Assembly: GCA_902761575.1 (NCBI GenBank)
Contig: CACWKU010000008.1
Span: 1-48,576, forward strand
DNA: 48,576 bases
From: an uncultured bacterium
Lineage (GTDB): Bacteria > Verrucomicrobiota > Kiritimatiellia > RFP12 > UBA3636
Reading direction: 5' to 3'
The notes below the pieces were generated by a model. It ran no database searches, had not been told where the DNA came from, and saw nothing but the letters and a program-made list of their open reading frames with translations. Below are positions 1,025 to 34,781 of the stretch, in pieces (position 1 is the first letter of the stretch; the number at the start of each line of letters is the position of its first letter). Made by a program: the position numbers and the translations under genes.

Positions 1025-5422
<4,398 letters not shown>

Positions 5423-5432
5423 GGGAGGAGGG

Positions 5433-5493
5433 GGTTGAAACGGTTGAAGGGGTTGAAACGGTTGAAGAGGTTGAAGAAGTTGAAAGGTTGAAG
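5433..5493 (-). repeat. tandem 9-mer array (GGTTGAARN) in the purL 5' leader
   Basis: GGTTGAAAC GGTTGAAGG GGTTGAAAC GGTTGAAGA GGTTGAAGAA GTTGAAAG GTTGAAGC lies directly upstream of the purL ATG (5422). On the coding strand it reads CTTCAACC-type and is G-poor. Confidence 0.9.
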
Positions 5494-8308: not shown

Positions 8309-8333
8309 CGCCCGCCGGCGGGCGGGCGCGCCC
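8309..8333. terminator. GC palindrome cluster between convergent genes (possible bidirectional terminator)
   Basis: CGCCCGCC/GGCGGGCG followed by GGGCGCGCCC fills the 24-nt gap between the GH9 and GT2 stops. Confidence 0.3.
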
Positions 8334-9184: not shown

Positions 9185-9187
9185 CGT

Positions 9188-9268
9188 GGTTCGAAGGTTC
9201 GAAAGTTCAAAGGTTCGAAGGTTCGAACGATTCAACCCTGGAACCTTCGAACCTTGGAACCTTGGAAC
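9188..9268. repeat. self-complementary tandem array built on GGTTCGAAG / CCTTCGAACC
   Basis: GGTTCGAAGGTTCGAAAGTTCAAAGGTTCGAAGGTTCGAACGATTCAACCCTGGAACCTTCGAACCTTGGAACCTTGGAAC fills the gspG-GT2 intercistronic gap. The two halves are mutually complementary. Confidence 0.85.
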
Positions 9269-13141: not shown

Positions 13142-13170
13142 ACGCGGGCCGCGGAAACCGCGGCCCGCGT
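13142..13170. terminator. perfect 13-bp hairpin between convergent genes (bidirectional terminator candidate)
   Basis: ACGCGGGCCGCGG aaa CCGCGGCCCGCGT begins 4 nt after the acyltransferase stop and ends 23 nt before the opposing stop. Confidence 0.55.
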
Positions 13171-21211: not shown

Positions 21212-22417
21212 ATGAAACGTCCCTTCCGCCACGCCTTCCTCCTTCTCGCCTTCGCGCCGCTCCTCGCGGCGCGGGCGGAGGAGCCCGTCGCGGATGTCAC
21301 GGCGTCGAACGCCTGCGACCGGCTCTGCCTCGACCTTCTCGCGGACGCGGCCGCCGCGCGCCGGAACGTCGTGTTCTCGCCGTTCAGCCTGTCCGGCGCG
21401 CTCGGCATGGTCGCGCTCGGGGCGAGGGGAGAGACGCTCGCGCAGATCGACCGCATCGCCGGGACGGGCCTCGACCCGGACGCGCTCGCGGAGCGGGAGG
21501 CCGGCGTGCGGGACGCGATCCTCGAGGCCGCCCGCGCGGACGGCGTCGAACTGCAGCTCGCCGATTCCCTCTGGAAGCAAAAGGGCGACGCCCCGCTGCC
21601 GGGCTTCGAGCAGGCGCTCCGCCGCGGATTCGGCGCCGAGGTCCTGGACTTCGGGCCCTTCCCGGCGTCCGACGTGAATCGCTGGGTCTCGAAGAAGACG
21701 AAGGGGCTCCTGCCGTCCGTGTTCGACGACCTCCCGGCCGGCACGCGCCTGGCGCTCGTGGACGCCGTCTACTTCAAGGCGCGCTGGGCCGTGCCGTTCG
21801 AGCGCAAGCGGACGTCCGACCGGACGTTCTATCCGGAGGGCGGTGCGCCGAAGACCGTTCCGTTCATGAACCTGCTCGCCTGGTTCGCCTACGATTCCTC
21901 GGACCGCTGGGAGTCGCTGGAAATCCCCTACCGGGGGGAGCGGTTCCGGATGCAGATCGTCCTGCCGCGTCCGGGCGTGACCGTCGCCAACCTCGTGGAT
22001 GACTGGATTTCCGGCGCCGACGCTCCGCCCGCCGCAGGCGCGCCCGACGGGAACGGGACGCGCCGCTGGACCGCCTATCTCGAACTTTCCCTCCCGAAGT
22101 TTTCGTTCGGCTCCGCGCCGGACGTCGCCGGCGCGCTGCACCGGCTCGGCGCGGCCGATGCGTTCGACCCGGCCCGGGCCGACTTGTCCGGGATGTTCCC
22201 GCCGTCGGGCGAGCCCCTCTTCCTGATGCGGTTCACGCACTGCGCCGTCGTCGATGTGGACGAGCGCGGCACCACCGCCGCGGCCGCGACCGGCATGTCG
22301 TTCGGCTGCAGCGTGCCGGCGCCTCCGGAGTTCCTGATCGTCGACCGTCCCTTCGTCTTCTTCATCCGCGAACCCGGCGGACGCATCCTCTTCGCCGGCG
22401 CGGTCTTCGAACCCTGA
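21212..22417 (+). CDS. serpin (inhibitory-type hinge), secreted
   Basis: ORF 20807..22417 was trimmed to MKRPFRHAFLLLAFAPLLAARA. Serpin motifs are FSPFSLSGALGM and NAVYFKARW-type VDAVYFKARW. The hinge is DERGTTAAAATGM and the end is DRPFVFFIRE. Confidence 0.9.
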   Translation: MKRPFRHAFLLLAFAPLLAARAEEPVADVTASNACDRLCLDLLADAAAARRNVVFSPFSLSGALGMVALGARGETLAQIDRIAGTGLDPDALAEREAGVRDAILEAARADGVELQLADSLWKQKGDAPLPGFEQALRRGFGAEVLDFGPFPASDVNRWVSKKTKGLLPSVFDDLPAGTRLALVDAVYFKARWAVPFERKRTSDRTFYPEGGAPKTVPFMNLLAWFAYDSSDRWESLEIPYRGERFRMQIVLPRPGVTVANLVDDWISGADAPPAAGAPDGNGTRRWTAYLELSLPKFSFGSAPDVAGALHRLGAADAFDPARADLSGMFPPSGEPLFLMRFTHCAVVDVDERGTTAAAATGMSFGCSVPAPPEFLIVDRPFVFFIREPGGRILFAGAVFEP

Positions 22418-22431
22418 ACCACGACCCTTCC

Positions 22432-24345
22432 ATGAAACCCTTCCTCCATTCGCCGCGTAGCGGCGCCCATCATTCGGCGCGAAGCGCCGCCCTCCATTCG
22501 GCGGCAACGCCGCCCTTCATTCGCGCCATAGGCGCGTCCTTCATTCGCGCCATAGGCGCGCCCTTCATTCGCGGCGTAGCCGCGCCCTTCATTCGCCGCG
22601 TAGCGGCGCTCTTCATTCTCTGCGCGGCCGCGCCCCGCGCGGCCGCGCAGTGCGCCGCGCAGGGCGTCACGCTCAAGCCCGGCTGGAACGCCGTCTACGT
22701 CGAGGTCTCGCCCGAGGCGGACGCCACCGCGGTCTTCGGGCCGTGGCCGGTCGACTCGGTCGGCGTCTACGACCCGGCCTCGTTCCTCGCCACGCGCCAG
22801 TTCTCGGCGGACGGCGGGTCGGACGGCCTCGTCTCGTCGCCCATCTTCATGTGGAACCGCGAGTACCCCGAGGCGACGTCCGTCACGCGCGTCCCCGCGG
22901 GCGTGGTCTGCCTCTGCTTCAACACGAACCTCGCGAGCGGGGCGGAGGGGACGTTCTCGACGAACCTCGTCGGCGTCCCCGCCGCGCCGCGCACGACGTG
23001 GCACCGCAGCGAGGGCGGCGAGGTGCTCAACTACTTCGGCTTCTCGGTGCGCCCCGGCGCGGCGGTCGCGCCCGGCGCCTACCTCGCCGGCTTCGGCGAC
23101 CTGGCGGGCGGCTCGCTGCTGCGCATCGGCGGCAAGCGGCGCGAGGACCCGCCCTCGCGCCTGCCGGTCTACTCGAACGACACGGTCTCGGACGGCGAGG
23201 TGCTGCTCGTCGGCGCGACGGCGCCCTCGGACTGGTCCGGCGCGCTGTACGTCTCGCCGATGGACGGCCTCGACTTCGGCACCAACGCGACGCTCCGCAC
23301 GCTCTCGGTCCGCAACGACGGCGGCGCGCCGCGCACGGTCTCGCTGAAGCTGGACCGCGCCGTCGCGGAGCTCGACGCCCGCCTGCCCTTCGGCCCGGCG
23401 CTGCTCGTCTGGCGCGACGCGGACGTCGCCCGCACGAACGCCGCGTGGAACGCGCTCGAGGGCTTCGGCGCGTTCGCCTCGAAGCGCCTCGCCGCCGGCG
23501 AGACGTGGCGCCTGCAGTTCGGCCTCGACCGCGCGAGCGTCCCCGCCGGGCTCGTGCAGGGCATTCCCTTCGGCGCGCTCCTCACGGCGCTCGACGACGA
23601 CGGCGGCTCGCAGATGAAGGCGACCGTCCCGCTGCGCGCGGAGACGAGCGGCGCGGACGCCGCGCGCACCGCCTGGCCCTCCGGGCTGTGGATCGCCGAC
23701 GTCGCGCTCGACACGGTGGACTTCGCCTCCGCCGAGAACCCCGCCCCCGCGGGCGGCGTCCTCAAGCTGCGCCTCCCGCTGCACGTCGACGCGGAGGGCA
23801 AGGTCCGGCTGCTGCAGCGCGTCGTCGCCGCGGGCGAGGCCGACGCCGCCGGCAACCTCGCCTACCGCCTCTACGCGGGCGAGGCCGAGCCGCCCGCCAC
23901 CGCGTCGCAGGCGCTGCGCATCTCCTCGGCCGTGCTGCCGACCGAGACGCCGGTCGTCGAGGCCTCGTTCGCCGACTTCTCGTCCGCGATCGGCATCGCG
24001 ACGTTCCAGTTCGAGGTGGCGGCGGACGGCGCCACGAGCCTCCTGCGCCACCCCTACCATCCGCAGCACGACGGCCTGCGCTGGGACTTCTCCACGCCGG
24101 CGCCATCCGGCGATTTCATCGACAACTACAAGGGCGAGGTAAAGCCCGAGACCTTCTCCGTGAAGAACACGCTCATGCTGTCGTTCGACTTCGGCGCGGG
24201 CGCCTCGCGCTGGGACCCGCAGGACGCCGTCTCCGGCTCCTGCTGGTGGAGATTCTCGGGCCTCCGCCGCGAAGGCGACCTCGTCGCCTCCGGCCCCCTC
24301 TCCCTGAAGCGCGTCTCCGCCCTCTCGGAAATCGTCCTCGAATAA
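22432..24345 (+). CDS. secreted hypothetical protein (637 aa) with hairpin-array leader
   Basis: It starts 14 nt after the serpin stop. The N-terminus is the translated repeat array and ends in RRVAALFILCAAAPRAAAQ. The mature part is unassigned and contains HPYHPQHDGLRWDF. Confidence 0.6.
   Translation: MKPFLHSPRSGAHHSARSAALHSAATPPFIRAIGASFIRAIGAPFIRGVAAPFIRRVAALFILCAAAPRAAAQCAAQGVTLKPGWNAVYVEVSPEADATAVFGPWPVDSVGVYDPASFLATRQFSADGGSDGLVSSPIFMWNREYPEATSVTRVPAGVVCLCFNTNLASGAEGTFSTNLVGVPAAPRTTWHRSEGGEVLNYFGFSVRPGAAVAPGAYLAGFGDLAGGSLLRIGGKRREDPPSRLPVYSNDTVSDGEVLLVGATAPSDWSGALYVSPMDGLDFGTNATLRTLSVRNDGGAPRTVSLKLDRAVAELDARLPFGPALLVWRDADVARTNAAWNALEGFGAFASKRLAAGETWRLQFGLDRASVPAGLVQGIPFGALLTALDDDGGSQMKATVPLRAETSGADAARTAWPSGLWIADVALDTVDFASAENPAPAGGVLKLRLPLHVDAEGKVRLLQRVVAAGEADAAGNLAYRLYAGEAEPPATASQALRISSAVLPTETPVVEASFADFSSAIGIATFQFEVAADGATSLLRHPYHPQHDGLRWDFSTPAPSGDFIDNYKGEVKPETFSVKNTLMLSFDFGAGASRWDPQDAVSGSCWWRFSGLRREGDLVASGPLSLKRVSALSEIVLE
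22441..22650 (+). repeat. mini-hairpin tandem array A1 (7-8 units of ~24 nt) plus 13-bp terminal hairpin
   Basis: Units are of the type CCTTCATTCGCGCCATAGGCGCG and CCTTCATTCGCCGCGTAGCGGCG. The terminal hairpin is CTGCGCGGCCGCG ccccg CGCGGCCGCGCAG at 22620-22650. Confidence 0.9.
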
Positions 24346-24389
24346 CCTCATTCAACCAACCAAACACCGAACCACCCAAACACCGAACC

Positions 24390-25475
24390 ATGAAAACCAC
24401 CATTCCTCATTGCCGCGAAGCGGACCGTCATTCGGCGGCGACACCGCCGCCCTTCATTTGCGGGGACGCCGCACCCTTCGTTCGCCGCGCAGCGGCGTTC
24501 GTCATTGCCGCGCTTGCGGCCTCGGCCGCAAGCGCGGCCGGCTTCCGCGCGGCGCCCGTCGCCGAATTCAAGGAAGGTGCCCTCTCCTTCGGACTCTCCG
24601 CCGGAACGACGTTCGTCGGCGGCGAGGCCCGCGAGCACGTCTTCCATCCGAAGGGGTATTTGTCCGACTATCTGGAGGAAATCCCCGGCGCGCCCGCGGA
24701 AGACCGCCGCCACCAGCTCTCCCGTCTCGACTGGGACATGGCCTCCGTCCTCGTGGGCGTCTCCGGATCCCTCCGCTACGACCGCCTCTCGCTCAACCTC
24801 GGCATCTGGTACGGCGGCAGCGGCTCCGACGACTACGACATGAAGGACTACGACTGGATGGCGGGCGACCACGTCCCCCATACCGAGTACTCCCGCTCCG
24901 ACACGGAGCTCACCGACGCCTGGCTGTTCGACGCCAACGTCTCCTTCGACTTCTGGCGCTCCGAGGGCTTCACGGGCTACGTCTTCGCCGGCGCGCGCGA
25001 GCAGCGCTGGAAGTGGACCTGCGACGGCCGCACCGACTACTGGTACACCGAGAACGGCCACGTCTGGGAGCACGAGGACGGCCACATCTGCGACTACCGC
25101 CAGGTCCTCTTCTTCGGCTACGTCGGCCTCGGCGGAAGCTGGAGGCTGACCGATTCGCTCGGCCTCTCCGCCTACGTCTCCTGGGGCCCAGGCTGGAAGG
25201 GACGCGACCGCGACAACCACATCGGCGCCGAAAAGGACACGCACGACTCGTTCGACTACGATTCCAACGTCTACGCCGCCGGCGTCTCGCTCGACTGGCA
25301 CGTCGCCGAGCGCGCGACCGTCTCCTTCGGCGTCGACTGGCAGAAGGCCACGCTCAACCAGGGGCTCCTCTCCCAATGGGAGTACGGCTCCGACGAGACC
25401 GAGGAGATGCCCGACTCCGCCGGCATGGAGAACGAGTACCTCTCCTTCACCGTCGGCCTCGACTACGCCTTCTAG
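24390..25475 (+). CDS. omptin-family outer-membrane protease (peptidase A26)
   Basis: It aligns by eye along its whole length to OmpT/Pla: SRLDWDM, KDYDWMAGD (the Asp-x-Asp catalytic pair), ICDYRQVLFFGYVGLGGSWR, RDRDNH (the Asp-x-His pair) and the C-terminal ENEYLSFTVGLDYAF. Confidence 0.85.
   Translation: MKTTIPHCREADRHSAATPPPFICGDAAPFVRRAAAFVIAALAASAASAAGFRAAPVAEFKEGALSFGLSAGTTFVGGEAREHVFHPKGYLSDYLEEIPGAPAEDRRHQLSRLDWDMASVLVGVSGSLRYDRLSLNLGIWYGGSGSDDYDMKDYDWMAGDHVPHTEYSRSDTELTDAWLFDANVSFDFWRSEGFTGYVFAGAREQRWKWTCDGRTDYWYTENGHVWEHEDGHICDYRQVLFFGYVGLGGSWRLTDSLGLSAYVSWGPGWKGRDRDNHIGAEKDTHDSFDYDSNVYAAGVSLDWHVAERATVSFGVDWQKATLNQGLLSQWEYGSDETEEMPDSAGMENEYLSFTVGLDYAF
24403..24538 (+). repeat. mini-hairpin tandem array A2 (~5 units) plus 15-bp terminal hairpin
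   Basis: Unit examples are TTCCTCATTGCCGCGAAGCGG and CCTTCGTTCGCCGCGCAGCGGCG. The terminal hairpin is GCCGCGCTTGCGGCC tc GGCCGCAAGCGCGGC at 24507-24538. Confidence 0.9.
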
Positions 25476-25483
25476 CACGCAAG

Positions 25484-25528
25484 TCCGGCGTGGCGCGGCG
25501 GGCGGCTCCGCCGCCGCCGCCCACGCCG
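25484..25528 (+). terminator. long imperfect GC hairpin after the omptin gene
   Basis: CCGGCGTGG...CCACGCCGG closes a ~45-nt stem-loop starting 9 nt after the stop. No U-tract. Confidence 0.35.
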
Positions 25529-25584
25529 GGCGTTGAACGGCCGCGCTCCGCGCGGCGCACCGCAGCCCCGGCAAACCGAACATC

Positions 25585-26355
25585 ATGCAGAAGCCCTCGC
25601 GCCGTTCCCGACTCCTCTGGGTTCTTCCGCCCGTCGCGTTTCTCGCGGCGTTGCTGCTCTGGTTCGTCGCCGAATGCGTCCGCGGAGCCGCGTTTCCCGA
25701 GCCGTGGAACGCCCCGGCGCATTCGCAGTGGATTTCGTTCCCCTTCGAGATTCTCGTGGCCGCTTCCGCCCTCGTGCTCGCCGGGGCGCCGTTCGTCGCG
25801 GCGATCAGCCGCCGAGGCGGCGCGGCAGCGCTTCTGTTTGCGAGCTGGATTCCGTGTTTCATCGCGTTCCTCTTCATCGGATTCATGTCGGGACGCGATT
25901 CCCAAAACCGCTGGGACCGCTTCGCGGACCGGCTCGAAATCCCGGAAGGCCTCGACGTCTCCGAACCCGTCGGAAAGAGCGAGGCGCCCGATATCGGTTT
26001 CGCCGCGCTGCCCGCGGATTCCGCGGATGCCGCCGCGCTGTGCCTTCGAGACTACGGGATGGGCTGCTACGCCGCCGCGATCTTCCTCCGGACGGCGGAG
26101 CCGGGTCGCATCCGCCTTCGCGCGGTCGAAGTCACGACCGGGCATTCCCTCTCGCCCTACGAGCTGGACGAGAAGACGTCGCGAGACCACGCCGGCGGCG
26201 ACGCCCGGTTCGACTGGCTCGAGTTCATCGTTGGCGAGGGCGACCTCGTCCACCCCTACGCAGCCCGCTTCGAAGTCTGTTTCCGCCCGGCCTCCGGCGG
26301 CCCCGAGCGCACAATCGGGTCGCGCGTCTACCGCATCGTCGGCTCGCAATTCTGA
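25585..26355 (+). CDS. hypothetical membrane protein (no hairpin leader)
   Basis: 256 aa with three or four N-terminal hydrophobic helices (LLWVLPPVAFLAALLLWFVA, ILVAASALVLAGAPFVAAI, LLFASWIPCFIAFLFIGFM) and a soluble C-terminal domain. No family recognised. Confidence 0.5.
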   Translation: MQKPSRRSRLLWVLPPVAFLAALLLWFVAECVRGAAFPEPWNAPAHSQWISFPFEILVAASALVLAGAPFVAAISRRGGAAALLFASWIPCFIAFLFIGFMSGRDSQNRWDRFADRLEIPEGLDVSEPVGKSEAPDIGFAALPADSADAAALCLRDYGMGCYAAAIFLRTAEPGRIRLRAVEVTTGHSLSPYELDEKTSRDHAGGDARFDWLEFIVGEGDLVHPYAARFEVCFRPASGGPERTIGSRVYRIVGSQF

Positions 26356-26397
26356 TCCCGTCCCCCCGTTTTCGAAAACTGACAAATCCCACCAACC

Positions 26398-28578
26398 TTG
26401 AACACGTCCGTCCTCCGTCATTGCCGCGAAGCGGCCCCGTCATTCGCGCCGCGCAGCGTCGCGATGTCATTGCGCCGCGCAGCGGCGCTCGTCATTGCCG
26501 CGCTTGCGGCCTCGGCCGCAAGCGCGGCCGCGCCGGTCACCCTCGCGCCGATGTTCCGCGACCACGCCGTTTTGCAACGGGACGTCCCCGTCCCGATCTG
26601 GGGAACGGCGGAGCCGGGGGCAAAGGTCGCGGTCCGACTCGTCCGTGCGGACGAGTCGGACGCGGAACCATGCGAAATGACGGCGACGGTCGGCGAGGAT
26701 GGACGCTGGCGCGTCGAGCTTCCGCCGCATCCCGCTGGCGGTCCTTACGAGCTCGGCGCAGCCGAGCTCCCCCATGCCCTCGGCGCCGCGTCCGCGCCGG
26801 ACGGCGCGGGCGCGCGCGCCGAGGACATCCTCATTGGCGATGTCTGGCTCTGCTCCGGCCAGTCGAACATGGACATGAACTACGGCTGGGGGCTCACGCG
26901 CGGGAAGGAGGACATCGAGACGAACGTGCACGCGAGGATCCGCCTCTTCGACGACCGCAACCGCACCGCGCTCTCGCCGCAGCGCGACCTGCCGGACGAC
27001 TACGGCTGGACGACCTGCGACCCCGCGCACGCAAAGTCCTTCTCCGCCGTCGGCTACTTCTTCGGGCAGGCGCTGCAGGAGGCGATGCCCGACGTCCCGA
27101 TCGGCCTCGTCGAGGCGTCCTGGTCCGGCTCGCCCATCAAGACCTGGATTCCCTACGAGGCCGCCGAGGCCCTCGGCGGCGATTTCGGCAAGCAGGCCGG
27201 CGAGCGCCGCGCCATCGCGGAGGCGTGGGAGAACGGCGGCGCCGAGCAGTTCAAGGTCGACCTCGCCGCGTGGATGGAAAAGCTGCCCGCAATCGACCCC
27301 GGCGACGCCCCCGCCGCGCCGGACTTCGACGATTCGGACTGGCAGACCGCCAACCTTCCCGAAATCACCGAGAAGCACACCAAGCCCGACTTCGACGGTT
27401 GGGTATGGTATCGCAGGACGTTCGTGATCGACGAAGAGGAGCATCCGGTCGTCGACACGGCCTCGCTTTCGCTCGGCCCCATCGACGACCAGGATTGGAC
27501 CTATGTCAATGGCGTTCTCGTCGGCACGACCAATGTGTGGGACGCACCTCGCGACTACAAGATTCCGGAAGGCGTCCTGCATTCCGGAACCAACACAATC
27601 GCGGTCAAGGTCCTCGACTGGGGCGGACACTCCGGATTCTGGAAGAACGCCCCCGCCGGCATGTCCGTATCGGTTTCGTTGGCGCAAGACGAAATCGTCA
27701 CCGAAGAATGCATCGTCGAAAGCAGTAGCACACGCACCATCCCCCTCGCCGGCGAATGGAAGTTCAAGGCGTTCCCGGCGGAGCCGCGGCCGGTGGACCC
27801 GTCGTCGCCGTCGTCGTGGGACATCGCCGCGTGCCACAACGGCATGGTGGCGCCGCTCTTCGGGATGGCGGCGAAGGGGGCGATCTGGTACCAGGGCTGC
27901 TCGGACGTCGGGCACGCGGACCTCTACGCGAAGCAGTTCCCGGCGATGGTCGGCGCGTGGCGCGAGGGCTTCGTGCACGACGACGCGGGCTTCCCGGTCT
28001 ACCTCGTGCAGCTCGCGGCGTTCAAGGAGGCGCACACGGAGCCGCTGGACTCCGCGTGGGCGCGGATGCGCTGGACGCAGATGCGGCTCGGCGAAACCGT
28101 CCCGCACTGCGGCACCGCCGTCGCGATCGACGTCGGCGACCACCGCGACATCCACCCCAAGGACAAGAAGACCGTCGGCGAGCGCCTCGCCGCTCTCGCG
28201 CTTGCGCAGACCTATGGTCGGGAAGGCCGGTCATTGAGCCCCGTGCCGTCGCAGGCGAGCTACGATTGGGCGGCGGGACACGTCATGATCCAATTCGTCG
28301 ACCCCGTATCCCTCAAGCCGGCGAAACTGCGAGAGGATTTCGACCTTCGCGGCTTCCAGGTTTTCATCGATGGCGGCGACTGGAAATGGGCGGAGAAGTC
28401 GTTCGTCAACGAAAAGATGTTCCCCGACACCGTGTTCGTGGACTGTCCCGGCGGAGTCCACACAAATGTTTGTGTCCGCTACGCGTGGGACGACTACCCC
28501 GACTGCAACCTCGTTTCCGCCGACGGCCTTCCCGTCGGCCCGTTCGAGCTGAAGGCGAAAATCCTCGATCTCAAATAG
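26398..28578 (+). CDS. sialate O-acetylesterase-like carbohydrate esterase with inserted galactose-binding-like domain
   Basis: The motif GDVWLCSGQSNM is typical of the 9-O-acetylesterase family. The segment DDSDWQTANLPE...WVWYRRTF is typical of a sugar-binding jelly roll. The track start is TTG. An in-frame ATG at 26464 would give MSLRRAAALVIAALAASAASA. Confidence 0.8.
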   Translation: MNTSVLRHCREAAPSFAPRSVAMSLRRAAALVIAALAASAASAAAPVTLAPMFRDHAVLQRDVPVPIWGTAEPGAKVAVRLVRADESDAEPCEMTATVGEDGRWRVELPPHPAGGPYELGAAELPHALGAASAPDGAGARAEDILIGDVWLCSGQSNMDMNYGWGLTRGKEDIETNVHARIRLFDDRNRTALSPQRDLPDDYGWTTCDPAHAKSFSAVGYFFGQALQEAMPDVPIGLVEASWSGSPIKTWIPYEAAEALGGDFGKQAGERRAIAEAWENGGAEQFKVDLAAWMEKLPAIDPGDAPAAPDFDDSDWQTANLPEITEKHTKPDFDGWVWYRRTFVIDEEEHPVVDTASLSLGPIDDQDWTYVNGVLVGTTNVWDAPRDYKIPEGVLHSGTNTIAVKVLDWGGHSGFWKNAPAGMSVSVSLAQDEIVTEECIVESSSTRTIPLAGEWKFKAFPAEPRPVDPSSPSSWDIAACHNGMVAPLFGMAAKGAIWYQGCSDVGHADLYAKQFPAMVGAWREGFVHDDAGFPVYLVQLAAFKEAHTEPLDSAWARMRWTQMRLGETVPHCGTAVAIDVGDHRDIHPKDKKTVGERLAALALAQTYGREGRSLSPVPSQASYDWAAGHVMIQFVDPVSLKPAKLREDFDLRGFQVFIDGGDWKWAEKSFVNEKMFPDTVFVDCPGGVHTNVCVRYAWDDYPDCNLVSADGLPVGPFELKAKILDLK
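26411..26528 (+). repeat. mini-hairpin tandem array A3 (~4 units) plus 15-bp terminal hairpin
   Basis: Its last 42 nt (26489-26530) are identical to 24499-24540, and it has the same terminal hairpin at 26497-26528. Confidence 0.9.
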
Positions 28579-28648
28579 CGTGCGACGCGTAGCTCGTTTC
28601 GCCAATTCCTCCACCATGAATCCTCGATTCCCCCGACATCCGATGCCC

Positions 28649-28690
28649 GGCCGCCTCGCGAGACGGCAGGGCCGGCTCGCGCAGGCGGCC
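28649..28690 (+). terminator. hairpin downstream of the esterase gene (possible terminator)
   Basis: GGCCGCCTCGCGAG ...13 nt... CTCGCG(C)AGGCGGCC lies 70 nt after the stop. Confidence 0.3.
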
Positions 28691-28793
28691 GAAATCTCCC
28701 GTTTCTGCGGCCCGTTCGAACTGGAGATCACGCCCTGACCCCTTGCCCGCTCCCCGGAGCGCCCCCCATCAAAAACCAAAACACACAACGACC

Positions 28794-29888
28794 ATGAATA
28801 CTCCCGCCATCCGTCATTGCCGCGCAGCGGCCCCTTCATTCGCCGCGAAGCGGCGCCCTTCATTCGCCACGAAGTGGCGGTCGTCATTCGTCCTTGCGGC
28901 GGCGCTTTGCGCGCTGGCGCAAAGCGCCGCCGCCGCGGACGTCTCCTTCGCCTACCAGGGCGTGCTGCGCGCCGACGACGGCGGCGCGCTCCCCGAACGC
29001 AACCAGACGGTCGAGTTCCGCCTCTACGACAGCCCCGACGGCGAGACCGCGCTCTGGGGGCGCACGGTCGCGGTGCTGCTCGACGAAAACGGGCTCTTCA
29101 ACGCCGAGCTCTCCGACTCCGCCGGCTCGACGGCCCCGGGCGCCCCGGGCACCGGGCTCGCCGGCGTCTTCGCCGCGAACGCGGACAAGTCGCTCTTCGT
29201 CGGCCTCACGGTCGTCGGGACGAGCGGCGAGATCGCGCCGCGCCAGAAGATCCTCCCCGTGCCCTACGCGGTCTTCGCCTCCGACGTCGCGTCCGCGAGC
29301 GGCGACTTCGCCGCGGCCGGCGTCCTCACCGCGGCCTCCGCGACGTTCTCGGGCGGCGTCTCGGCCGCCTCGCTCGACGTCGCCGGCTCCGTCGCGGCCT
29401 CGTCGCTCTCCGTCACGGGCGACGCGACCGTCAACGGCGACCTGCAGGTCGGCGGCGCGGTCTCCGGCTTCGGCACGGTCCCGCTGGAGTGCATCATCCT
29501 GTGGAGCGGCTCCGCGGACGACATCCCGAACGGCTGGGCGCTCTGCAACGGCCAGACCGTCAACGGGCACACGACCCCCGACCTGCGCAACCGCTTCGTC
29601 GTCGGCGCCGGCACGGGCTCGCAGTACACGGTCGGCGAAACGGGCGGCGAGGAGAAGCACACGCTCTCGGAGAGCGAGATGCCGTCGCACTCGCACACCT
29701 ACGACTTCAAGGGCGCGGACTTCAAGGGCGCGTGGGACGACGACAACTACGTCTACGACGCATCCGGGCACTACAAGGACAGGTCCCAGAACGACAACCG
29801 GCGGACCACCAACTCGACCGGCGGCGGCGCCGCCCACGAGAACCGCCCGCCGTACTACGCGCTGTGCTACATCATGCGCGTCCGCTAG
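28794..29888 (+). CDS. secreted tail-fibre-like protein with C-terminal phage tail collar domain
   Basis: ORF 28743..29888 was trimmed to MNTPAIRHC. The N-module is FAYQGVLRADDG...VEFRLYDS...ALWGRT...PRQKILPVPYAVFA. The collar motifs are IPNGWALCNGQ, TPDLRNRFVVGAG, MPSHSHTY and HENRPPYYALCYIMR. Confidence 0.85.
   Translation: MNTPAIRHCRAAAPSFAAKRRPSFATKWRSSFVLAAALCALAQSAAAADVSFAYQGVLRADDGGALPERNQTVEFRLYDSPDGETALWGRTVAVLLDENGLFNAELSDSAGSTAPGAPGTGLAGVFAANADKSLFVGLTVVGTSGEIAPRQKILPVPYAVFASDVASASGDFAAAGVLTAASATFSGGVSAASLDVAGSVAASSLSVTGDATVNGDLQVGGAVSGFGTVPLECIILWSGSADDIPNGWALCNGQTVNGHTTPDLRNRFVVGAGTGSQYTVGETGGEEKHTLSESEMPSHSHTYDFKGADFKGAWDDDNYVYDASGHYKDRSQNDNRRTTNSTGGGAAHENRPPYYALCYIMRVR
28809..28933 (+). 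repeat. mini-hairpin tandem array A4 (~4 units) plus 17-bp terminal hairpin
   Basis: It includes the covarying unit CCTTCATTCGCCACGAAGTGGCG. The terminal hairpin is GCGGCGGCGCTTTGCGC gctg GCGCAAAGCGCCGCCGC at 28896-28933. Confidence 0.9.
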
Positions 29889-29899
29889 CGCGGCCGCTC

Positions 29900-30026
29900 A
29901 TGATGAATGAAGGGTTCCACTGCGCGGAAAATGAAGGGTGCTTCGCAAATGAAGGGTGCGCCTGCGGCGCAAATGAAGGGTCCCGCTTCGCGGGAAATGA
30001 AGGGTGCGGCTGAGCCGCAAATGATG
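29900..30026 (-). repeat. reverse-complement mini-hairpin array (5-6 units) downstream of tail-collar gene 1
   Basis: AATGAAGGG + TGCGCC tgc GGCGCA / TCCCGC ttc GCGGGA / TGCGGC tga GCCGCA. It starts 12 nt after the stop at 29888. Confidence 0.9.
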
Positions 30027-30077
30027 CAGTCAAACAATCCACGCTTTGCAACCATGACACGTTTCTTCGTTGCTTGT

Positions 30078-31487
30078 ATGCATCGCATCCGCTCCTATCA
30101 TTCGCGCGGAGCGCGCCACCCATTTGCCGCGCATCGGCACCCTTCATTCGCGCCAGCGGAGTGTCCTCCATTCACGACGAAGGCGTGCCCTTCATTCGCG
30201 CCAGCGGAGTGCCCTCCATTCACGCCGAAGGCGTGCCCTTCATTCGCGACGCGCAGCGGCGCGCCCTTCATTTGCGGCGGAGCCGCACCCGTCATTCGCG
30301 GCGCAGCCGCGCTCGTCATTGCCGCGGCCGCGACAGCGGCCGCGAGCCCGGCGCCCGCGCCGTGGAGGCAGGCCGACTTCGCGGCCGACCTCTATCGCAA
30401 GGCGGCGTCGGTGCAGCCGGCGGACGAAAACGTCGTGCTGTCGCCGTGGGGCGTGGCGAACCTCTTCGCGCTGCTGCAGACCGGCGCGCGGGGGGACACC
30501 GCTCGCGGCATGGCCTTCGCGCTGCAGCTCGGCGGCGTCGAGCCGCCCGAGCCCGACGCCGTCGCCGCGACGTTCCGCGAGTCGCGCACGAACCTCGAAC
30601 GCGCCGCGAACGACGACGTCGCGCTCGAGCTCTCCGATTCGCTCTGGATCAAGCCCGGATTCGCCCTGTCCGAGAGCTTCCGCTCCCTTGCCCGCGACTC
30701 CTTCGACGCCGACGTCCGCCTCACCTGGATGGGCGCCAAGGGTCGCAAGGAGATCAACGCCTTCGTCGCCGAGAAGACCCACGACCGCATCAAGGACCTG
30801 ATCCAGCCGCCCGTCCTCGACGATCCGCTGACGCGCCTCGTCGCCGTCGACACGGTCTACCTCAAGGCCAAGTGGGAGATCCCCTTCGAGAAGGACGCCA
30901 CGCGCGACCGGACCTTCCACGCGCCGGGCGGCGACGTCGAGGTCCCGTTCCTCCACGACACGCGCCACGCGGAGATCCTCGACGCGCCCGAGTGCGCCGC
31001 GCTGCGGCTCCCGTACCGCTTCGGCTCGGCGGAGATGCTCGTGATCCTGCCGTCGCCCTCCAACACGCTCGCGGAGGTCGAGGCGAAGCTCTCCGGCCCG
31101 TGGCTCGACCGGCTCGCCGCCAAACCGTGGCGGGGCGAGGCCGTCCTCGCGCTCCCGAAGTTCGACTTCGGCAGCGAGCACGACCTGTCGAAGACGCTCC
31201 CGTACATGGGCATGGGCGCCGCGTTCGACCCCGCCCGCGCCGACTTCTCCGGCATCGCGCCGCAGCTCTACATCGGCACCGCCATCCAGAAGGCCAACGT
31301 CACGGTCGACGAAGCCGGCACCGAGGCCGCCGCCGCGACTTTCGCGGTCATGCTGGAAGGGTGCATCGGTCCGATGGAGAACGTTCCGCCCCCGCGCCCG
31401 TTCGTCGCCGACAGGCCGTTCCTCTTCATCATCCGCGAAACCCGCACCGGCCTGATCCTCTTCCTCGGCCGCGTCTGCAAGCCCTAG
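30078..31487 (+). CDS. serpin (inhibitory-type hinge), secreted, with long hairpin-array leader
   Basis: The start was chosen as MHRIRSYHS by analogy with neighbouring leaders; alternatives are 30054 and 29907. Motifs are LSPWGVANLFALL and VDTVYLKAKW. The hinge is DEAGTEAAAATFAV and the end is DRPFLFIIRE. Confidence 0.85.
   Translation: MHRIRSYHSRGARHPFAAHRHPSFAPAECPPFTTKACPSFAPAECPPFTPKACPSFATRSGAPFICGGAAPVIRGAAALVIAAAATAAASPAPAPWRQADFAADLYRKAASVQPADENVVLSPWGVANLFALLQTGARGDTARGMAFALQLGGVEPPEPDAVAATFRESRTNLERAANDDVALELSDSLWIKPGFALSESFRSLARDSFDADVRLTWMGAKGRKEINAFVAEKTHDRIKDLIQPPVLDDPLTRLVAVDTVYLKAKWEIPFEKDATRDRTFHAPGGDVEVPFLHDTRHAEILDAPECAALRLPYRFGSAEMLVILPSPSNTLAEVEAKLSGPWLDRLAAKPWRGEAVLALPKFDFGSEHDLSKTLPYMGMGAAFDPARADFSGIAPQLYIGTAIQKANVTVDEAGTEAAAATFAVMLEGCIGPMENVPPPRPFVADRPFLFIIRETRTGLILFLGRVCKP
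30093..30344 (+). repeat. mini-hairpin tandem array A5 (~10 units, includes a 48-nt higher-order repeat) plus 9-bp terminal hairpin
   Basis: CCTTCATTCGCGCCAGCGGAGTG(T)CCTCCATTCACG(A/C)CGAAGGCGTGC occurs twice. The terminal hairpin is CGCGGCCGC gaca GCGGCCGCG at 30323-30344. Confidence 0.9.
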
Positions 31488-31500
31488 GAGCGAAACTCGT

Positions 31501-34254
31501 ATGAGAACACAAGCAAGAACAACACGTCCCTGCCGCGCAGCGGCCGGCCATTCGGCGGCAATGCCGCCGCCCTTCATTCGCCGCGCAGCGGCGCCCTTCA
31601 TTTGCGGCGGAGCCGCACCCTTCATTCGCCGCGCAGCGGCGCTCGTCATTCTCGCGACGCTGACCGTTTCGGCCCACGCCGAAACGGTCAGCATCGCGAG
31701 CGCCGCCGACTGGGCGGCGTTCGCGGAGCGCGTGAACGCGGGCGAAACGGACCTCTGCGCGGAGATGACCGCCGACGTGACGCTCGGGAACGACGCGCCG
31801 CGCGTCGGAAGTTCGAACTACTTCGGGGGAACCTTCGACGGTCAGGGGCACGCGCTCACGGTCGCGTTCGAGGAGACGGGCGGCTCGGGTTCCGATCGCG
31901 ACCCTCCCTGCGCCCCCTTCGCCTACGTGTGCGGGGCGAGCATCCGGAACCTGCACGTCACCGGAACCATCGCCTCCAACGGCCGTTACGCGGCCGGTTT
32001 CTGCGGTTTCGTGGCCGCCCTGAACGGGACGACCTCGCTTTCGAACTGCCGCTCGTCCGTCTGCGTCGAATGCCGTGTCGACGGCGACGCCACGTCCGCC
32101 GGATTCGTCGGCGCCGTCAAGACGCCCGGCACGCTCCAGATGTCCGACTGCGTCTTCGACGGTTCGATTTGTTCCGGGAGGGGCGTCACGGCCCATTCCT
32201 GCGGCGGGTTCGTCGGCTGGCGCGACGCTTCCGCCTCGGTCTATCTGGGGAGATGCCTGTTCGCTCCGGCGAAGACCAGGGTGGGGACCGACGGAAACGC
32301 CTCGACCTTCGTGCGCGACAACGGCGCCGACGGCCGGAACATCGACGCCTGCCACTATCTCCAGACGCTCGGCGCGGCGCAGGGCGCGAACGCCTCCGCG
32401 ACGTCCGCGGAGGACCTCGCCGCCGCGCTGGGAAGCGACTGGACCGTCGCGGACGGCAAGGTCGTTCTCGCGTCCTTCCCCGGTTCGGTCGAGGTCTACG
32501 ATCCCGATTGGGTCGAGATCTCCTCCGCCGCCGACTGGACCGAGTTCGCCGAATTGGTGAACGCGGGCGAAACGTACCTCTGCGCGAAGATGACCGCCGA
32601 CGTGGCGCTCGGGAACGACGCGCCGCGCGTCGGCACGACGGAGGCCACCGCCTGGACGGGCGAGTTCGACGGCGGCGGACACACGCTCACGGTGGACTGG
32701 ACGTTCACGAAGACGGAATTCGCCGCCCCGTTCGCGATCGTCTCCGGATGCTTCGTCCACGACCTGCACGTCGCCGGATCGATCTCCTCCGACACCAACT
32801 ACGTCGCCGGGTTCGCCGGCTGGGCGAAGCCCGGGGCCCGGTATCCCACGTTCGAACGCTGCCGGTCCTCCGTTGCCCTCACGTGCACGAAGTCCGGCGA
32901 GGTGTGCTGCGGCGGCTTCGTGGGCTACACGTTCTGGGCGGTCTACAACGTCTGCTTCCGGGACTGCCTGTTCGACGGCTCCCTTCTCGGACCGAACGCC
33001 GAACGGTGCGGCGGGTTCGCCGCAAGCCCCTTCGTCGACGCCAACATCGATCTGCACAACTGCCTCTTCGACCCCGCTCAGGTCACGGTTTCGAGCTCAA
33101 TGTCGGGGACCCTCGTGGGCACCCCCTACTCCAGCCACACCTGGGTCGACACGTGCTACTACACCCGGGTCCTCGGCGCGAAGCAGGGCACGGACGCCTC
33201 CGCGATGTCCGAGGAGGACCTCGCCGCCGCGCTCGGCGAGAACTGGATCGTCGCGAGCGGAAAGGTCCTCCCGAAGACGTTCGTCGAGGTCGGCCATCCC
33301 GAGAATGCCGTGGCGGGGTTCGTCTACCAGGGCGCGCTGCGCGACGCGCAGGGGTTCGCGCTCGCGGAGAAGCGCCGGACGGTCGAGATCCGCCTCTACG
33401 CGCAGGCCGCGGGCGGCACCTCGCTCTGGGGCCGGAAGCACGACGTGCTGCTCGACGACGCCGGGCTCTTCCTCGTCCAGCTCTCGGACGACGCCGGCAC
33501 GCCGGTCGACGGCGACCCGGGGACGCCGCTCGCGGACGTCCTCGCGCGGAACGCCGGCGTCCCGCTCTTCGCCGGAGTGACGGTGGCGGGGGCCGGCGCG
33601 GAGATCTCGCCGCGCCAGAAGCTCCTCCCCGCGCCGTTCGCGCTCCTCGCGTCGGATGCCTCCGCCGCGCGCGGCGACTTCGCCGTCGCGGGCGCCCTCT
33701 CCGCGGAGGGGCTGGTCGTCTCGGACGAGCTCGCCGCCCCGTCCGCGCAGATCTCCGGCGCGGCCACCGCCGGGACGCTCGGAACCGCCGGCGGCGTGCG
33801 CGCGGACGGCAACCTGTCGGTCGCGGGCGAGCTCGCGGGCTACGGCACGATCCCCGTCGGCGGCATCGTCGCGTGGAACGGCGCGGAGTCCGCCATCCCG
33901 AACGGCTGGGCGCTCTGCAACGGCCAGACCGCCAACGGGCGCAAGACCCCCGACCTGCGCAACCGCTTCGTCGTCGCCGCGGGCGGGCAGTACAAGGCCG
34001 GCGACACGGGCGGCGAGGACAAGCACAAGCTGACGGTCTCCGAGCTGCCGCCGCACTCGCACACCTACGACTTCAAGGGCGCGGACTTCGACCTCGCGTG
34101 GGACGACGACAACTACATCTACGACGCCTCCGAGCACTACAAGGACAGGCCCCAGAACGCCAACCAGAGGTCCACCAACGCGGCCGGCGGCGACCAGCCG
34201 CACGAGAACCGCCCGCCGTACTACGCGCTTTGCTACATCATGCGCGTCCGCTAG
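31501..34254 (+). CDS. secreted protein: two Cys-rich GLUG-like modules + tail-fibre-like module + phage tail collar domain
   Basis: It starts 13 nt after the serpin stop. Two ~270-aa repeats begin SAADWAAFAERVNAGETDLCAEMTADVTLGNDAPRVG and SAADWTEFAELVNAGETYLCAKMTADVALGNDAPRVG. The C-terminal ~320 aa is paralogous to 28794..29888 and ends identically in HENRPPYYALCYIMRVR. Confidence 0.8.
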   Translation: MRTQARTTRPCRAAAGHSAAMPPPFIRRAAAPFICGGAAPFIRRAAALVILATLTVSAHAETVSIASAADWAAFAERVNAGETDLCAEMTADVTLGNDAPRVGSSNYFGGTFDGQGHALTVAFEETGGSGSDRDPPCAPFAYVCGASIRNLHVTGTIASNGRYAAGFCGFVAALNGTTSLSNCRSSVCVECRVDGDATSAGFVGAVKTPGTLQMSDCVFDGSICSGRGVTAHSCGGFVGWRDASASVYLGRCLFAPAKTRVGTDGNASTFVRDNGADGRNIDACHYLQTLGAAQGANASATSAEDLAAALGSDWTVADGKVVLASFPGSVEVYDPDWVEISSAADWTEFAELVNAGETYLCAKMTADVALGNDAPRVGTTEATAWTGEFDGGGHTLTVDWTFTKTEFAAPFAIVSGCFVHDLHVAGSISSDTNYVAGFAGWAKPGARYPTFERCRSSVALTCTKSGEVCCGGFVGYTFWAVYNVCFRDCLFDGSLLGPNAERCGGFAASPFVDANIDLHNCLFDPAQVTVSSSMSGTLVGTPYSSHTWVDTCYYTRVLGAKQGTDASAMSEEDLAAALGENWIVASGKVLPKTFVEVGHPENAVAGFVYQGALRDAQGFALAEKRRTVEIRLYAQAAGGTSLWGRKHDVLLDDAGLFLVQLSDDAGTPVDGDPGTPLADVLARNAGVPLFAGVTVAGAGAEISPRQKLLPAPFALLASDASAARGDFAVAGALSAEGLVVSDELAAPSAQISGAATAGTLGTAGGVRADGNLSVAGELAGYGTIPVGGIVAWNGAESAIPNGWALCNGQTANGRKTPDLRNRFVVAAGGQYKAGDTGGEDKHKLTVSELPPHSHTYDFKGADFDLAWDDDNYIYDASEHYKDRPQNANQRSTNAAGGDQPHENRPPYYALCYIMRVR
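31526..31700 (+). repeat. mini-hairpin tandem array A6 (~5 units) plus 22-bp terminal hairpin
   Basis: The terminal structure is CTCGCGA c GCTGACCGTTTCGGC ccac GCCGAAACGGTCAGC a TCGCGAG at 31651-31700. That is 15 perfect bp plus 7 more after one mismatch. Confidence 0.9.
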
Positions 34255-34265
34255 CGCGGCCGCGC

Positions 34266-34396
34266 ATGATGAACGAAGGGTGCTTCGCAAATGAAGGGTG
34301 CTTCGCAAATGGAGGGTGCCGCTCCGCGGCAAATGAAGAGTGCGCCTGCGACGCAAATGAAGAGGACTTCGCGAATGAAGGGCGCGTTTCGCGCGA
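34266..34396 (-). repeat. reverse-complement mini-hairpin array (~6 units) downstream of tail-collar gene 2
   Basis: AATGAAGGG/AATGGAGGG/AATGAAGAG spacers alternate with TGCCGC tcc GCGGCA and similar stems. It starts 12 nt after the stop at 34254, in the same junction sequence as at 29888. Confidence 0.9.
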
Positions 34397-34415
34397 ACGG
34401 AAAGAATCGACCGAC

Positions 34416-34781
34416 ATGAAACCGGAAGACGATCCACTGAAAGAGAAGAGCATGGCGTTCGCCGTGTGCGCGGTGAAGCTCGCGAGGTGGCTGCGCGAGG
34501 AGAAAAAGGAGTTCTCCCTCGCCGACCAGATTCTGCGGAGCGGAACCAGCATCGGCGCGAATCTGGCGGAAGCCCGCCACGCCGCGTCGCGCAAGGACTT
34601 TCTCGCGAAGTGCAAGATCTCGCTCAAAGAGTGTTCCGAAACCCTCTTCTGGATCGAACTGCTCGAACGCTCGGACCTTCTTTCCCGCGACCAGGCGAAG
34701 CCCCTTGCTTCCGATTGCAACGACATCCGCCGCCTTCTCGCGGCTTCTTGTAAAACTCTCGAACGGAATCTCCAGCCATGA
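34416..34781 (+). CDS. four-helix-bundle protein (23S rRNA intervening-sequence protein / Avd-like family)
   Basis: 121 aa, MKPEDDPLKEKSMAFAVCAVKLARWL...ADQILRSGTSIGANLAEARHAASRKDFLAKCKISLKECSETLFWIELL. This is the characteristic GANIAEG/SxxDF/ExxYWL pattern. GC is visibly lower than in the neighbours. Its stop overlaps the next ATG (ATGA). Confidence 0.85.
   Translation: MKPEDDPLKEKSMAFAVCAVKLARWLREEKKEFSLADQILRSGTSIGANLAEARHAASRKDFLAKCKISLKECSETLFWIELLERSDLLSRDQAKPLASDCNDIRRLLAASCKTLERNLQP

Follow-up and report, generated by a model that had tools for sequence, protein, structure and literature searches.

Repeat leaders in a cluster of secreted-protein genes

The DNA analysed here (the window) is a stretch of 48.6 kb, positions 1–48,576 of contig CACWKU010000008.1 in assembly GCA_902761575.1, from an uncultured bacterium of the class Kiritimatiellia (Verrucomicrobiota; RFP12; UBA3636). 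The subject is a set of long palindromes that close the repeat-built leaders of neighbouring genes and lie over the codons for the core of their predicted signal peptides. The window has a G+C content of 67–74 % and a chromosomal setting, with purL, purB, a GH9 cellulase gene and trkH. Between 22.4 and 43.5 kb it holds eight closely packed open reading frames (ORFs) in the same orientation, seven of which have repeat leaders. The intergenic gaps in this cluster are 13–166 nt, three junctions being only 13–45 nt. The cluster consists of:

g1, 22432–24345, function unknown, repeat leader
g2, 24390–25475, omptin, repeat leader
Small membrane-protein ORF, 25585–26355, eighth ORF of the cluster, without a repeat leader
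g3, 26398–28578, SASA-type esterase, repeat leader
g4, 28794–29888, Collar/Gp10_C fibre-like protein, repeat leader
g5, 30054–31487, serpin, repeat leader
g6, 31501–34254, Collar-domain protein, repeat leader
g7, 34778–43501, giant protein, repeat leader

The nearest relatives were rumen metagenome-assembled genomes labelled 'uncultured Verrucomicrobia' and RUG13889, and one serpin ortholog bears the name 'Kiritimatiellae bacterium'. For comparison, about 20 related loci (given L-numbers below) were collected by pattern scans of genome and metagenome collections and from contigs with serpin orthologs. A weak NCBIfam match of g4 to the Bdellovibrio 'mosaic adhesive trimer' fibre family was also recorded. 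The start regions of the leader genes are C/A-rich and contain no Shine–Dalgarno motifs.

Composition of the arrays

Each leader is built from units of about 24 nt, in which a G-free, YC-rich linker, CCCTTCATTC (motif TCATT), is joined to a G+C stem of 5–7 bp. Loading of Rho at such linkers, as rut sites, is a conceivable but purely speculative function. The arrays in the cluster are:

g1 array, 22446–22619, plus strand, 8 units of 23–24 nt, each TCATT plus a C–G-closed GNA mini-hairpin, read in two frames (HS.., then PFIR..)
g2 array, 24407–24506, plus strand, about 4 units
g3 array, 26418–26496, plus strand, 3 units
g4 array, 28814–28895, plus strand, 3 units, PSF frame
g5 array, 30098–30322, plus strand, 10 units, several frames
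g6 array, 31548–31650, plus strand, 4–5 units
g7 array, 34798–34900, plus strand, 4 units, without a significant terminal hairpin in this genome

Across the window and the related loci, 103 distinct units were counted, whose stems differ in sequence while pairing is kept. The closing pair is C–G in 90 of about 100 units, and a GNA triloop (GCA, GAA, GTA or GGA) is present in 61 of about 100, with none in the opposite orientation. Many of the unit hairpins are literally GCGAAGC or GCGCAGC; GCGNAGC is a strand-specific 'mini-hairpin DNA' motif, much stabler as DNA than as RNA (PMC13037366).

Units of 24 nt predominate in the window, and 29 of the 103 distinct units (~28 %) have lengths that are not multiples of three. 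The units encode 6–9 residues in a frame that differs among genes and even inside a single gene (HS.., PSF.., PFIR..), so the conserved entity is the nucleotide sequence and not the peptide. Pfam gave no match on the leaders, a search of protein collections with a leader peptide returned only five short ENA fragments, and a scan of viral contigs with a two-unit pattern returned only unrelated low-GC tandem repeats. The terminal hairpin begins right behind the last TCATT and is in effect the last unit, greatly enlarged and specific to its gene.

Terminal palindromes

The initial annotation had placed long hairpins at the ends of six of the seven leaders, and all six were recovered:

g1 palindrome, 22620–22650, plus strand, 14 bp with 3-nt loop, dG −32.7 kcal/mol, z −4.8, encodes LCAAAPRAAAQ
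g2 palindrome, 24507–24538, plus strand, 15 bp with 2-nt loop, encodes AALAASAASAA, with the rare-codon pair CTT/GCA inside
g3 palindrome, 26497–26528, plus strand, 15 bp with 2-nt loop, same sequence as the g2 palindrome
g4 palindrome, 28896–28933, plus strand, 17 bp with 4-nt loop, dG −47.8 kcal/mol, z −7.2, encodes AAALCALAQSAAA
g5 palindrome, 30323–30344, plus strand, 9 bp with 4-nt loop
g6 palindrome, 31651–31700, plus strand, 15 perfect bp (31659–31692) and 7 more beyond one C·A mismatch, 4-nt loop, dG −43.3 kcal/mol, z −9.6

The g1 stem had been described as 13 bp with a 5-nt loop, which is equivalent. The g4 palindrome has an extra outer helix of 5 bp, giving a total span of 28889–28941, and that of g6 extends over the hydrophobic (h) region and the AHA cleavage motif into the initial residues of the mature protein. 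As previously proposed, it is the structure that recurs rather than one sequence, only the g2 and g3 palindromes being identical, and the giant gene g7 has no comparable stem (fold z = +0.7). The hairpins lie over the h- and c-region codons with their first base 99–269 nt past the start codon, close to the earlier estimate of 100–250 nt. Of the only seven stems in the window that pair perfectly over 13 bp or more around a loop no longer than 8 nt, five are terminal palindromes.

Fold energies of the six stems lay between −24 and −48 kcal/mol. Relative to dinucleotide shuffles their z-scores were −4.7 to −9.6, under RNA and DNA parameters alike, and none of 200 shuffles was as stable. It had been suggested that codon shuffling might show such stems to be a chance by-product of Ala-rich signal peptides in a genome of 70 % G+C. 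Two features suit that explanation: the Ala codons GCC and GCG are complementary in the permissive phase, so that short stems are fairly frequent, and the 9-bp stem of g5 was matched by synonymous-codon resampling of the same peptide with P = 0.28. Each long hairpin gave P = 0.003–0.03 in this resampling, for a combined probability of ~4e-10, a control that conditions on a peptide itself shaped by the palindrome. When residue order was shuffled and codons were resampled, preserving composition, the four distinct long hairpins had P of at most 2.5e-5 and the 9-bp stem had P = 0.03. These controls rarely reach the long stems, and the chance outcome was thus not obtained.

The comparison with other signal peptides in the window agreed with this result. 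Those without an array had no long stem: at most 8 perfect bp were present in 4/4 tested, and a perfect stem of at least 9 bp was absent at all five array-less signal peptides of the window. The result for the wider set, where 0/13 plain signal peptides had a long stem, together with the co-variation and paired rare codons described below, leaves chance hardly credible as an explanation, and for the long stems the controls refute it.

No known RNA element coincided with the hairpins. Rfam gave zero matches at gathering score across the window, and a search of 22300–35000 gave three weak, unrelated matches (E up to 1), none of them on a hairpin or array. The terminator scan reported no terminal hairpin, and no U-tract follows the stems as would be expected of an intrinsic terminator; terminator-like calls fell only on small units, owing to their CCCTTCATTT tails. 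The promoter scan found no sigma-70-like promoters.

Translation of the leaders and the codon-phase rule

An upstream ATG was in frame with the gene body, as defined by G+C content at third codon positions, for 20 of the 21 arrays with enough flanking sequence, and an alternative start was usually absent. An in-frame leader was also found at four further loci. Judged from these reading frames, the leaders are translated. The last unit almost always reads (F)IRRAAAL(V/F)I, a good n-region, and in translations inspected by eye it is followed by the other attributes of a Sec-type signal peptide, the full set being a positive n-region, a hydrophobic h-region of 10–20 residues and small residues at −3 and −1 (A-x-A) ahead of the mature protein. 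Examples are ..RRAAALVILATLTVSAHA|ETV in g6 and ..RRAAAFVIAALAASAASAA|GF in g2. In orthologs with plain leaders, a canonical signal peptide is joined at the same point.

The proposal that the palindrome bases double as h- and c-region codons was therefore upheld, and it was found to be accompanied by a strict rule of codon phase. The first position of a codon in one arm is paired with the second position of a codon in the other, and third positions are paired with each other, in 6/6 hairpins of the window and in 21/22 across loci. In this phase GCN, CTN and AGC are mutually complementary, and both arms consequently read Ala, Leu, Ser or Thr. An in-register palindrome would instead set Arg, Gly, Glu or Asp against Ala, Leu or Val.

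Pairing is also visible at synonymous sites. Among 79 third-position pairs, seven are A:T and link two rare codons (CTT/GCA, CTT/CAA, GTT/GAA and others), although codons ending in A or T make up just 4.3 % in these genes. Pairing overrides codon preference, and the synonymous sites of the arms are constrained by pairing.

Leader types and exchange among relatives

More than 120 serpin orthologs have a common mature N-terminus, ..PAPWRQADF, and among them proteins that are 93–95 % identical carry TCATT arrays, heptamer repeats or plain signal peptides. The heptamer leaders are of the types CTCGTCA (peptide LVTRHSSLVT) and TTCGTCC or TTCGTAC (SSFVLRT). In locus L088 the leaders of g1, g4, g5 and g6 are all of the heptamer type, and a reverse array behind g4 changes type likewise.

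Such repeats could mark contingency loci of the opa type, in which slipped-strand mispairing would switch genes by frameshift and the hairpin would raise the slippage rate. The leaders of the relatives are indeed 7-nt coding repeats (CTCGTCA, TTCGTCC) in surface or secreted proteins, like the CTCTT of opa (PMC3960869), their unit number varies among orthologs, and the TCATT units include the ~28 % of lengths noted above that would shift the frame. However, no frameshifted OFF allele was seen in about 40 leaders from independent assemblies, one of which is uninterpretable owing to a scaffold gap, and the main heptamer runs have about four copies, an in-frame number. As most units of the window are 24 nt, their gain or loss keeps the frame, which also counts against switching of this kind. 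We consider the opa-type explanation decidedly improbable.

The palindromes were associated with repeat leaders, of whatever repeat type. When stems of 12 bp or longer with no more than one mismatch were counted, 16/26 repeat leaders had one, as against 0/13 plain signal peptides (Fisher p = 0.0003); for perfect stems of 9 bp or longer the counts were 13/26 and 0/13 (Fisher p = 0.0014), the cases not being phylogenetically independent. Stem-length counts were used here because the fold energy of a sequence window had a high background in GC-rich DNA and misclassified one gene. Both of the plain-leader serpin alleles that were read as DNA (L090, L092) are without the hairpin. On this comparison of alleles, the hairpin is dispensable for the protein and is tied to repeat-type leaders, not to signal peptides as such.

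The boundary between leader and gene body falls at the palindrome. In five swaps of repeat-type leaders (g1, g2, g4 and g6 twice), homology between alleles resumes 0–8 nt from the 5' foot of the hairpin. In the swap between TCATT and plain leaders of the serpin (g5), homology starts within the 3' arm: that arm is common to the window and the plain-leader alleles, and the 5' arm and loop are not. The 3' arm of this palindrome is therefore gene body, while the 5' arm and loop come with the repeat leader, the 5' arm being complementary to the beginning of the gene body.

Whole genes change along with leaders. The window and L090 are 94–98 % identical across the locus and differ in the leader type of g2, in the leader of g5 and the reverse array upstream of it, and in one whole gene, whose insertion or deletion has its breakpoints inside leader units. 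A similar junction at the unit level accounts for the omptin gene being present in one of L062 and L005 and absent from the other. Among close relatives, the omptin, esterase, 'extra', phosphatase-like and four-helix-bundle genes may each be present or absent, and the content and order of the cluster vary like a cassette array in L005, L044, L045, L059, L062, L088, L090 and L092. The same hairpin can stand on different gene bodies, as in g2 and g3, in L016 and the extra gene of L090, and in the L044 omptin and the L045 gene. For g2 and g3 the identity extends from the last unit to 1 nt beyond the stem, and since only g3 has the stem in L090, this identity indicates recent gene conversion between neighbouring leaders.

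These observations invite comparison with structure-specific recombination sites of the attC kind, where the hairpin would be recognised by a recombinase or single-strand transposase of its own, and gene bodies or leaders would travel as cassettes. A conserved structure of variable sequence, its position at the junction of a swappable leader with a gene body, the cassette-like gene content of g1–g4 and the recurrence of one hairpin on different bodies would all fit. Against this, the stems lack conserved core sites beside them (the 5' flank is TCATT and the 3' flanks share no motif), and no integrase, RAYT (REP-associated tyrosine transposase, where REP stands for repetitive extragenic palindrome) or IS200-type gene was found among the scanned window ORFs. 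Pfam and NCBIfam scans of these ORFs also gave no transposase or reverse transcriptase. Both mapped whole-gene indels break inside ordinary leader units, as homologous recombination would give, rather than at the terminal hairpin, and sites of the attC kind are regarded as very improbable.

Co-variation and putative templated change in the arms

Orthologs hold the hairpin at the same site while its sequence turns over. In the g6 orthologs three base pairs are altered on both sides, and 91 % of cells are paired compared to 26–42 % in slid controls. The 17-bp stem of g4 in the window is replaced in other genomes by an unrelated stem of 18–20 bp. L045 has a perfect serpin stem of 19 bp; in L005, L007 and L059 this stem is 9 + 8 bp and interrupted by mismatches, and the window has a different one of 9 bp. 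Matching changes at the apex of both arms were also seen when the sequences of the omptin and g6 orthologs were read by eye.

Several of these changes are clustered. The L045 and L088 alleles of one gene differ at 12 of 103 positions, of which 10 fall within the 38-nt hairpin, and the differences turn a quasipalindrome with 11/17 pairs into a perfect palindrome with 17/17. In the serpin orthologs a patch of four adjacent nucleotides (CAGT vs ACGG) completes the 19-bp stem. Clustered changes that are confined to an inverted repeat and raise its complementarity are the pattern of template switching at quasipalindromes.

Hairpins at 3' ends and reverse arrays

Palindromes and arrays were also present at the 3' ends of the two Collar-type genes:

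g4 3'-end hairpin, 29870–29905, plus strand, covers the final five codons, TAG stop inside the 4-nt loop, 16-nt arms that are 88 % complementary
g6 3'-end hairpin, 34236–34271, plus strand, over the last codons with the TAG stop in the loop, 16-nt arms that are 94 % complementary
Reverse array, 29906–30030, minus strand, 5–6 units, directly behind the g4 stop and upstream of the g5 start
Reverse array, 34272–34400, minus strand, behind the g6 stop and upstream of a four-helix-bundle gene

In L007 the non-coding arm of a 3'-end hairpin tracks synonymous changes in the coding arm (CGC GTC to CGG GTT). Taken together, the leader and 3'-end hairpins define a general layout of array, then palindrome made from the end of the gene body, then gene body. 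Genes g4 and g6 each have a palindrome and an outward array on either side, the 5' array being forward and the 3' array reverse, and thus lie between inverted repeat arrays.

The four-helix-bundle gene (34437–34780; TIGR02436/23S rRNA intervening sequence (IVS) protein family) has the reverse array upstream and the forward array of g7 downstream, and so sits inside a large inverted repeat (34272–34900), as it also does in L005, L025, L045, L088, L090 and L091. This placement is reminiscent of the same gene family within the stem-forming intervening sequences of rRNA. A like pair of reverse and forward arrays, without a four-helix-bundle gene, brackets the start codon of g5 (29906–30322). Read on the plus strand, the reverse arrays give strings of ATGAAGGG... 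units with in-frame ATGs. One such ORF continues from 29907 in frame into g5 (array 29907–30053), another, preceding the four-helix-bundle gene, terminates in an ATGA that overlaps the start codon of that gene, and in L091 (10049–10546) the gene caller joined the reverse array to the four-helix-bundle gene. A diversity-generating retroelement, for which a fibre-like gene, a hairpin and an Avd-like four-helix-bundle gene were considered, was dropped because neither a reverse transcriptase nor a template repeat is present.

Selection on mRNA structure or change at the DNA level

One explanation for the hairpins is that RNA pairing itself is selected, the stem acting in cis in the mRNA to slow or gate early translation, to be cut by a double-strand-specific RNase or, like REP elements between cistrons, to protect the 3' end of the upstream cistron. 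The predicted stability of the stems (−24 to −48 kcal/mol, z −4.7 to −9.6), their unvarying sense orientation 99–269 nt past the AUG and the tight gene spacing are in keeping with this, as are the compensatory changes, the paired rare codons and the fact that g4 and g6 keep their hairpins with arrays of another type. The 3'-end hairpins of the Collar genes, with the stop in the loop and more hairpins behind, resemble a 3'-end stabiliser. A roadblock or an RNase III site, as suggested earlier, is a possible role. An RNase III substrate is about two helical turns (~20 bp) of double-stranded RNA, a length approached by no stems other than those of g6 (22 bp with a mismatch) and g4 (17 + 5 bp).

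Selection on RNA is less consistent with the comparative results. Near-identical strains with plain leaders encode the same protein without the hairpin, which goes with the repeats and not with the gene. Breakpoints at the hairpin foot would not be predicted, nor would clustered conversions to full complementarity or perfect stems of 17–19 bp. G·U pairs are no commoner than C·A mismatches, although the counts are small, and the stems have neither a U-tract behind them nor an Rfam family match. Disruption of the stem in silico leaves the predicted accessibility of the start codon unchanged; a role as an insulator that keeps the start codon unpaired was rejected, as synonymous disruption had no consistent predicted effect. 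An mRNA-level function is a serious rival, or may be an additional effect, though we regard it as less likely than not to be what maintains the stems.

The reading that we tentatively favour, with somewhat less than even confidence, is that these are DNA-level palindromes whose complementarity is kept by intrastrand template switching, at a hotspot of slippage and recombination between leader and gene body. The hairpin would be the gene-proximal end of a modular, translated, repeat-built leader, which separates the start codon from the hydrophobic signal-peptide core in a set of secreted or surface proteins (serpins, an omptin, an esterase, fibre-like Collar proteins and a giant protein). The palindrome would extrude as a hairpin where the DNA is single-stranded, probably on the lagging-strand template, and stall replication beside the repeats. 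Stalling would make it easier for repeats to slip, for leaders to be exchanged by copy choice and for whole genes to be gained or lost in frame. Quasipalindrome correction, by intrastrand template switching, would keep the palindrome perfect or make it so. It may persist because a sequence of this kind is tolerated in the signal-peptide core and can even provide it, this core presumably being one of the few coding contexts that tolerate a palindrome. A hairpin beside direct repeats is reportedly a classic substrate for slippage and copy choice, as described by Viguera, Canceill and Ehrlich and by Trinh and Sinden, and intrastrand template switching at quasipalindromes is said to go back to Ripley and to Lovett. 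In the mRNA, ribosomes would have to open the stem (−24 to −48 kcal/mol); translation or processing is probably affected secondarily, but the pattern can be explained without such an effect.

Several observations weigh against this DNA-level reading. The compensatory changes and paired rare codons are equally expected from selection on an RNA stem. The forward arrays and hairpins are all co-oriented with the genes and lie just past the start codon, as an mRNA-level function predicts, and G·T and C·A mismatches are about equally frequent, in counts too small to discriminate. The g4 and g6 hairpins persist through changes of array type, that of g6 as far as a 64 %-GC relative whose neighbouring serpin is 76 % identical, and this looks like purifying selection rather than a by-product. 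Some repeat leaders have a weak hairpin or none (g7 in three genomes and the L092 omptin), and a run of about 12 heptamers at 43996–44078 (CGAGTGA, or CTCGTCA on the minus strand) has no palindrome adjoining. The ortholog sets are also small and related by descent, and are not phylogenetically independent.

A bolder possibility is that the repeats and palindrome form a dedicated, hairpin-guided system for leader exchange, with fold-back creation of signal-peptide cores. Replication would pause at the hairpin foot and switch template to another leader, so that surface and secreted proteins would be re-paired with start regions and whole genes gained or lost in frame. Fold-back copying of the first codons of the protein could also make a signal-peptide core de novo, because the in-phase reverse complement of Ala, Ser and Thr codons gives Ala, Ser and Leu. 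We consider a dedicated system of this kind improbable. If it were real, leader exchange would be a new kind of contingency mechanism, and export signals would be manufactured from palindromic DNA.

Under the DNA-level reading, the same 30–50 bases would serve as a non-B DNA structure, as a boundary for recombination and slippage, and as the hydrophobic core of an export signal, and the codon-phase rule (1 with 2, 3 with 3) explains how the two codes coexist. The locus would then be a natural, long-lived case of quasipalindrome correction shaping functional coding sequence, and a testable system for hairpin-driven genome plasticity in an abundant, poorly known rumen lineage. As the wholly different leaders of serpins that are 93–95 % identical illustrate, no part of a gene need be more fluid than its secretion leader. 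The results also bear on gene calling and signal-peptide prediction in high-GC genomes of the Planctomycetes–Verrucomicrobia–Chlamydiae group, given N-terminal extensions of 40–90 residues.

Other repeats and palindromes in the window

The heptamer run at 43996–44078 sits directly upstream of the ATG of a minus-strand ORF (43498–44097) whose product appears cytoplasmic by inspection, and its heptamer, CTCGTCA, is the same as in alternative leaders of related strains. G-poor tandem repeats adjoin start codons at 5433–5492 (type TTTCAACC, coding strand of purL), at 9188–9268 (type TTCGAACC, coding strand of ORF 8333–9235) and at 24354–24390, where the 16-mer AACCAACCAAACACCG precedes g2. Within minus-strand purL (3061–3514), the linker between the AIRS_C and PurM_N-like domains holds several tandem repeats of 7–8 nt (CGGTCACA ×4.6, GAATGCT ×4.7, CGTCTGG ×4 and GACCGTGT ×4.5), which are translated and of low complexity. 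The genome seems generally prone to forming short repeats.

Two convergent ORFs are separated by a perfect palindrome of 13 bp at 13142–13170 (ACGCGGGCCGCGG aaa CCGCGGCCCGCGT), a probable terminator. All other long perfect stems of the window are associated with the leader gene cluster. One of these, of 14 bp, at 26632–26661 (GTCCGACTCGTCCG tg CGGACGAGTCGGAC), falls in the mature part of g3 and includes the heptamer motif CTCGTCC. In L090 one pair of this palindrome is changed from A–T to C–G, a compensatory change, and two mismatches are present elsewhere in it.

Comparison with known systems

Literature searches turned up no description of this architecture, and no Rfam family corresponds to it. 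The closest formal parallel is with the opa genes of Neisseria, which have CTCTT pentamer repeats within the leader-peptide coding region (PMC3960869). In both cases short tandem repeats are translated in the leader of a surface protein and the element is conserved at the nucleotide level, and the heptamer leaders of the relatives are formally of the same design. The present leaders differ in showing no out-of-frame allele among those examined, in window units of 24 nt with a hairpin each, and in the long, unique terminal palindrome, which has no counterpart in opa.

REP sequences and bacterial interspersed mosaic elements are extragenic, imperfect palindromes of one sequence family with a GTAG-type foot and a cognate RAYT (a Y1 HUH transposase). 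The arrays resemble them in their short G+C-rich hairpin units with a conserved flanking motif, in tandem and in both orientations, and in being lineage-specific and located at gene boundaries. They are unlike them in that forward arrays and terminal hairpins are in frame within ORFs, just two reverse arrays being intergenic here, in having the CCCTTCATTC/TCATT motif and not GTAG, and in stem sequences that vary with compensation. The copies are confined in the window to one cluster of secreted-protein genes, and a Pfam scan of the window ORFs (48.6 kb) found no RAYT.

For integron attC sites, the inverse core sites R''/L'' and L'/R' (RYYYAAC ... GTTRRRY) were not found at the stems, the scanned window ORFs include no recombinase domain, where an integron would have IntI and attI close by, and the setting here is chromosomal.

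Rickettsia palindromic elements (RPEs) are single insertions of 100–150 bp. PARCEL (palindromic amphipathic repeat coding) elements encode a defined amphipathic domain of 25 residues (PMC2996958). Like both, the present repeats are palindromic DNA inside coding sequence at permissive sites, often in membrane-targeted proteins, and are shuffled within and between genomes. Unlike in RPE and PARCEL, the peptide is unconserved and read in several frames, the position is always just before the signal-peptide core, and the terminal palindrome is unique to the gene. The units, with 6–9 residues in varying frames and no Pfam match, do not amount to a PARCEL domain in a comparison that was made without the PARCEL hidden Markov model.

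Quasipalindrome mutation and hairpin slippage are laboratory mutational phenomena at arbitrary sites. The clustered changes that perfect an inverted repeat, and the direct repeats that flank the hairpins, are shared with them, whereas here they would belong to a long-lived, recurrent architecture of many genes that encodes a functional peptide. The C–G-closed GNA triloops of the units, which are strictly strand-specific, match mini-hairpin DNA, d(GCGNAGC) (PMC13037366), although the known cases are single and occur at phage and plasmid origins and N4 promoters, not as arrays in ORFs, and the motif fits the 24-nt units and not the long terminal palindromes. Each ingredient of the system therefore has precedents. 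What is new is their combination, in which swappable repeat leaders are capped by gene-specific palindromes that also encode the signal-peptide core.

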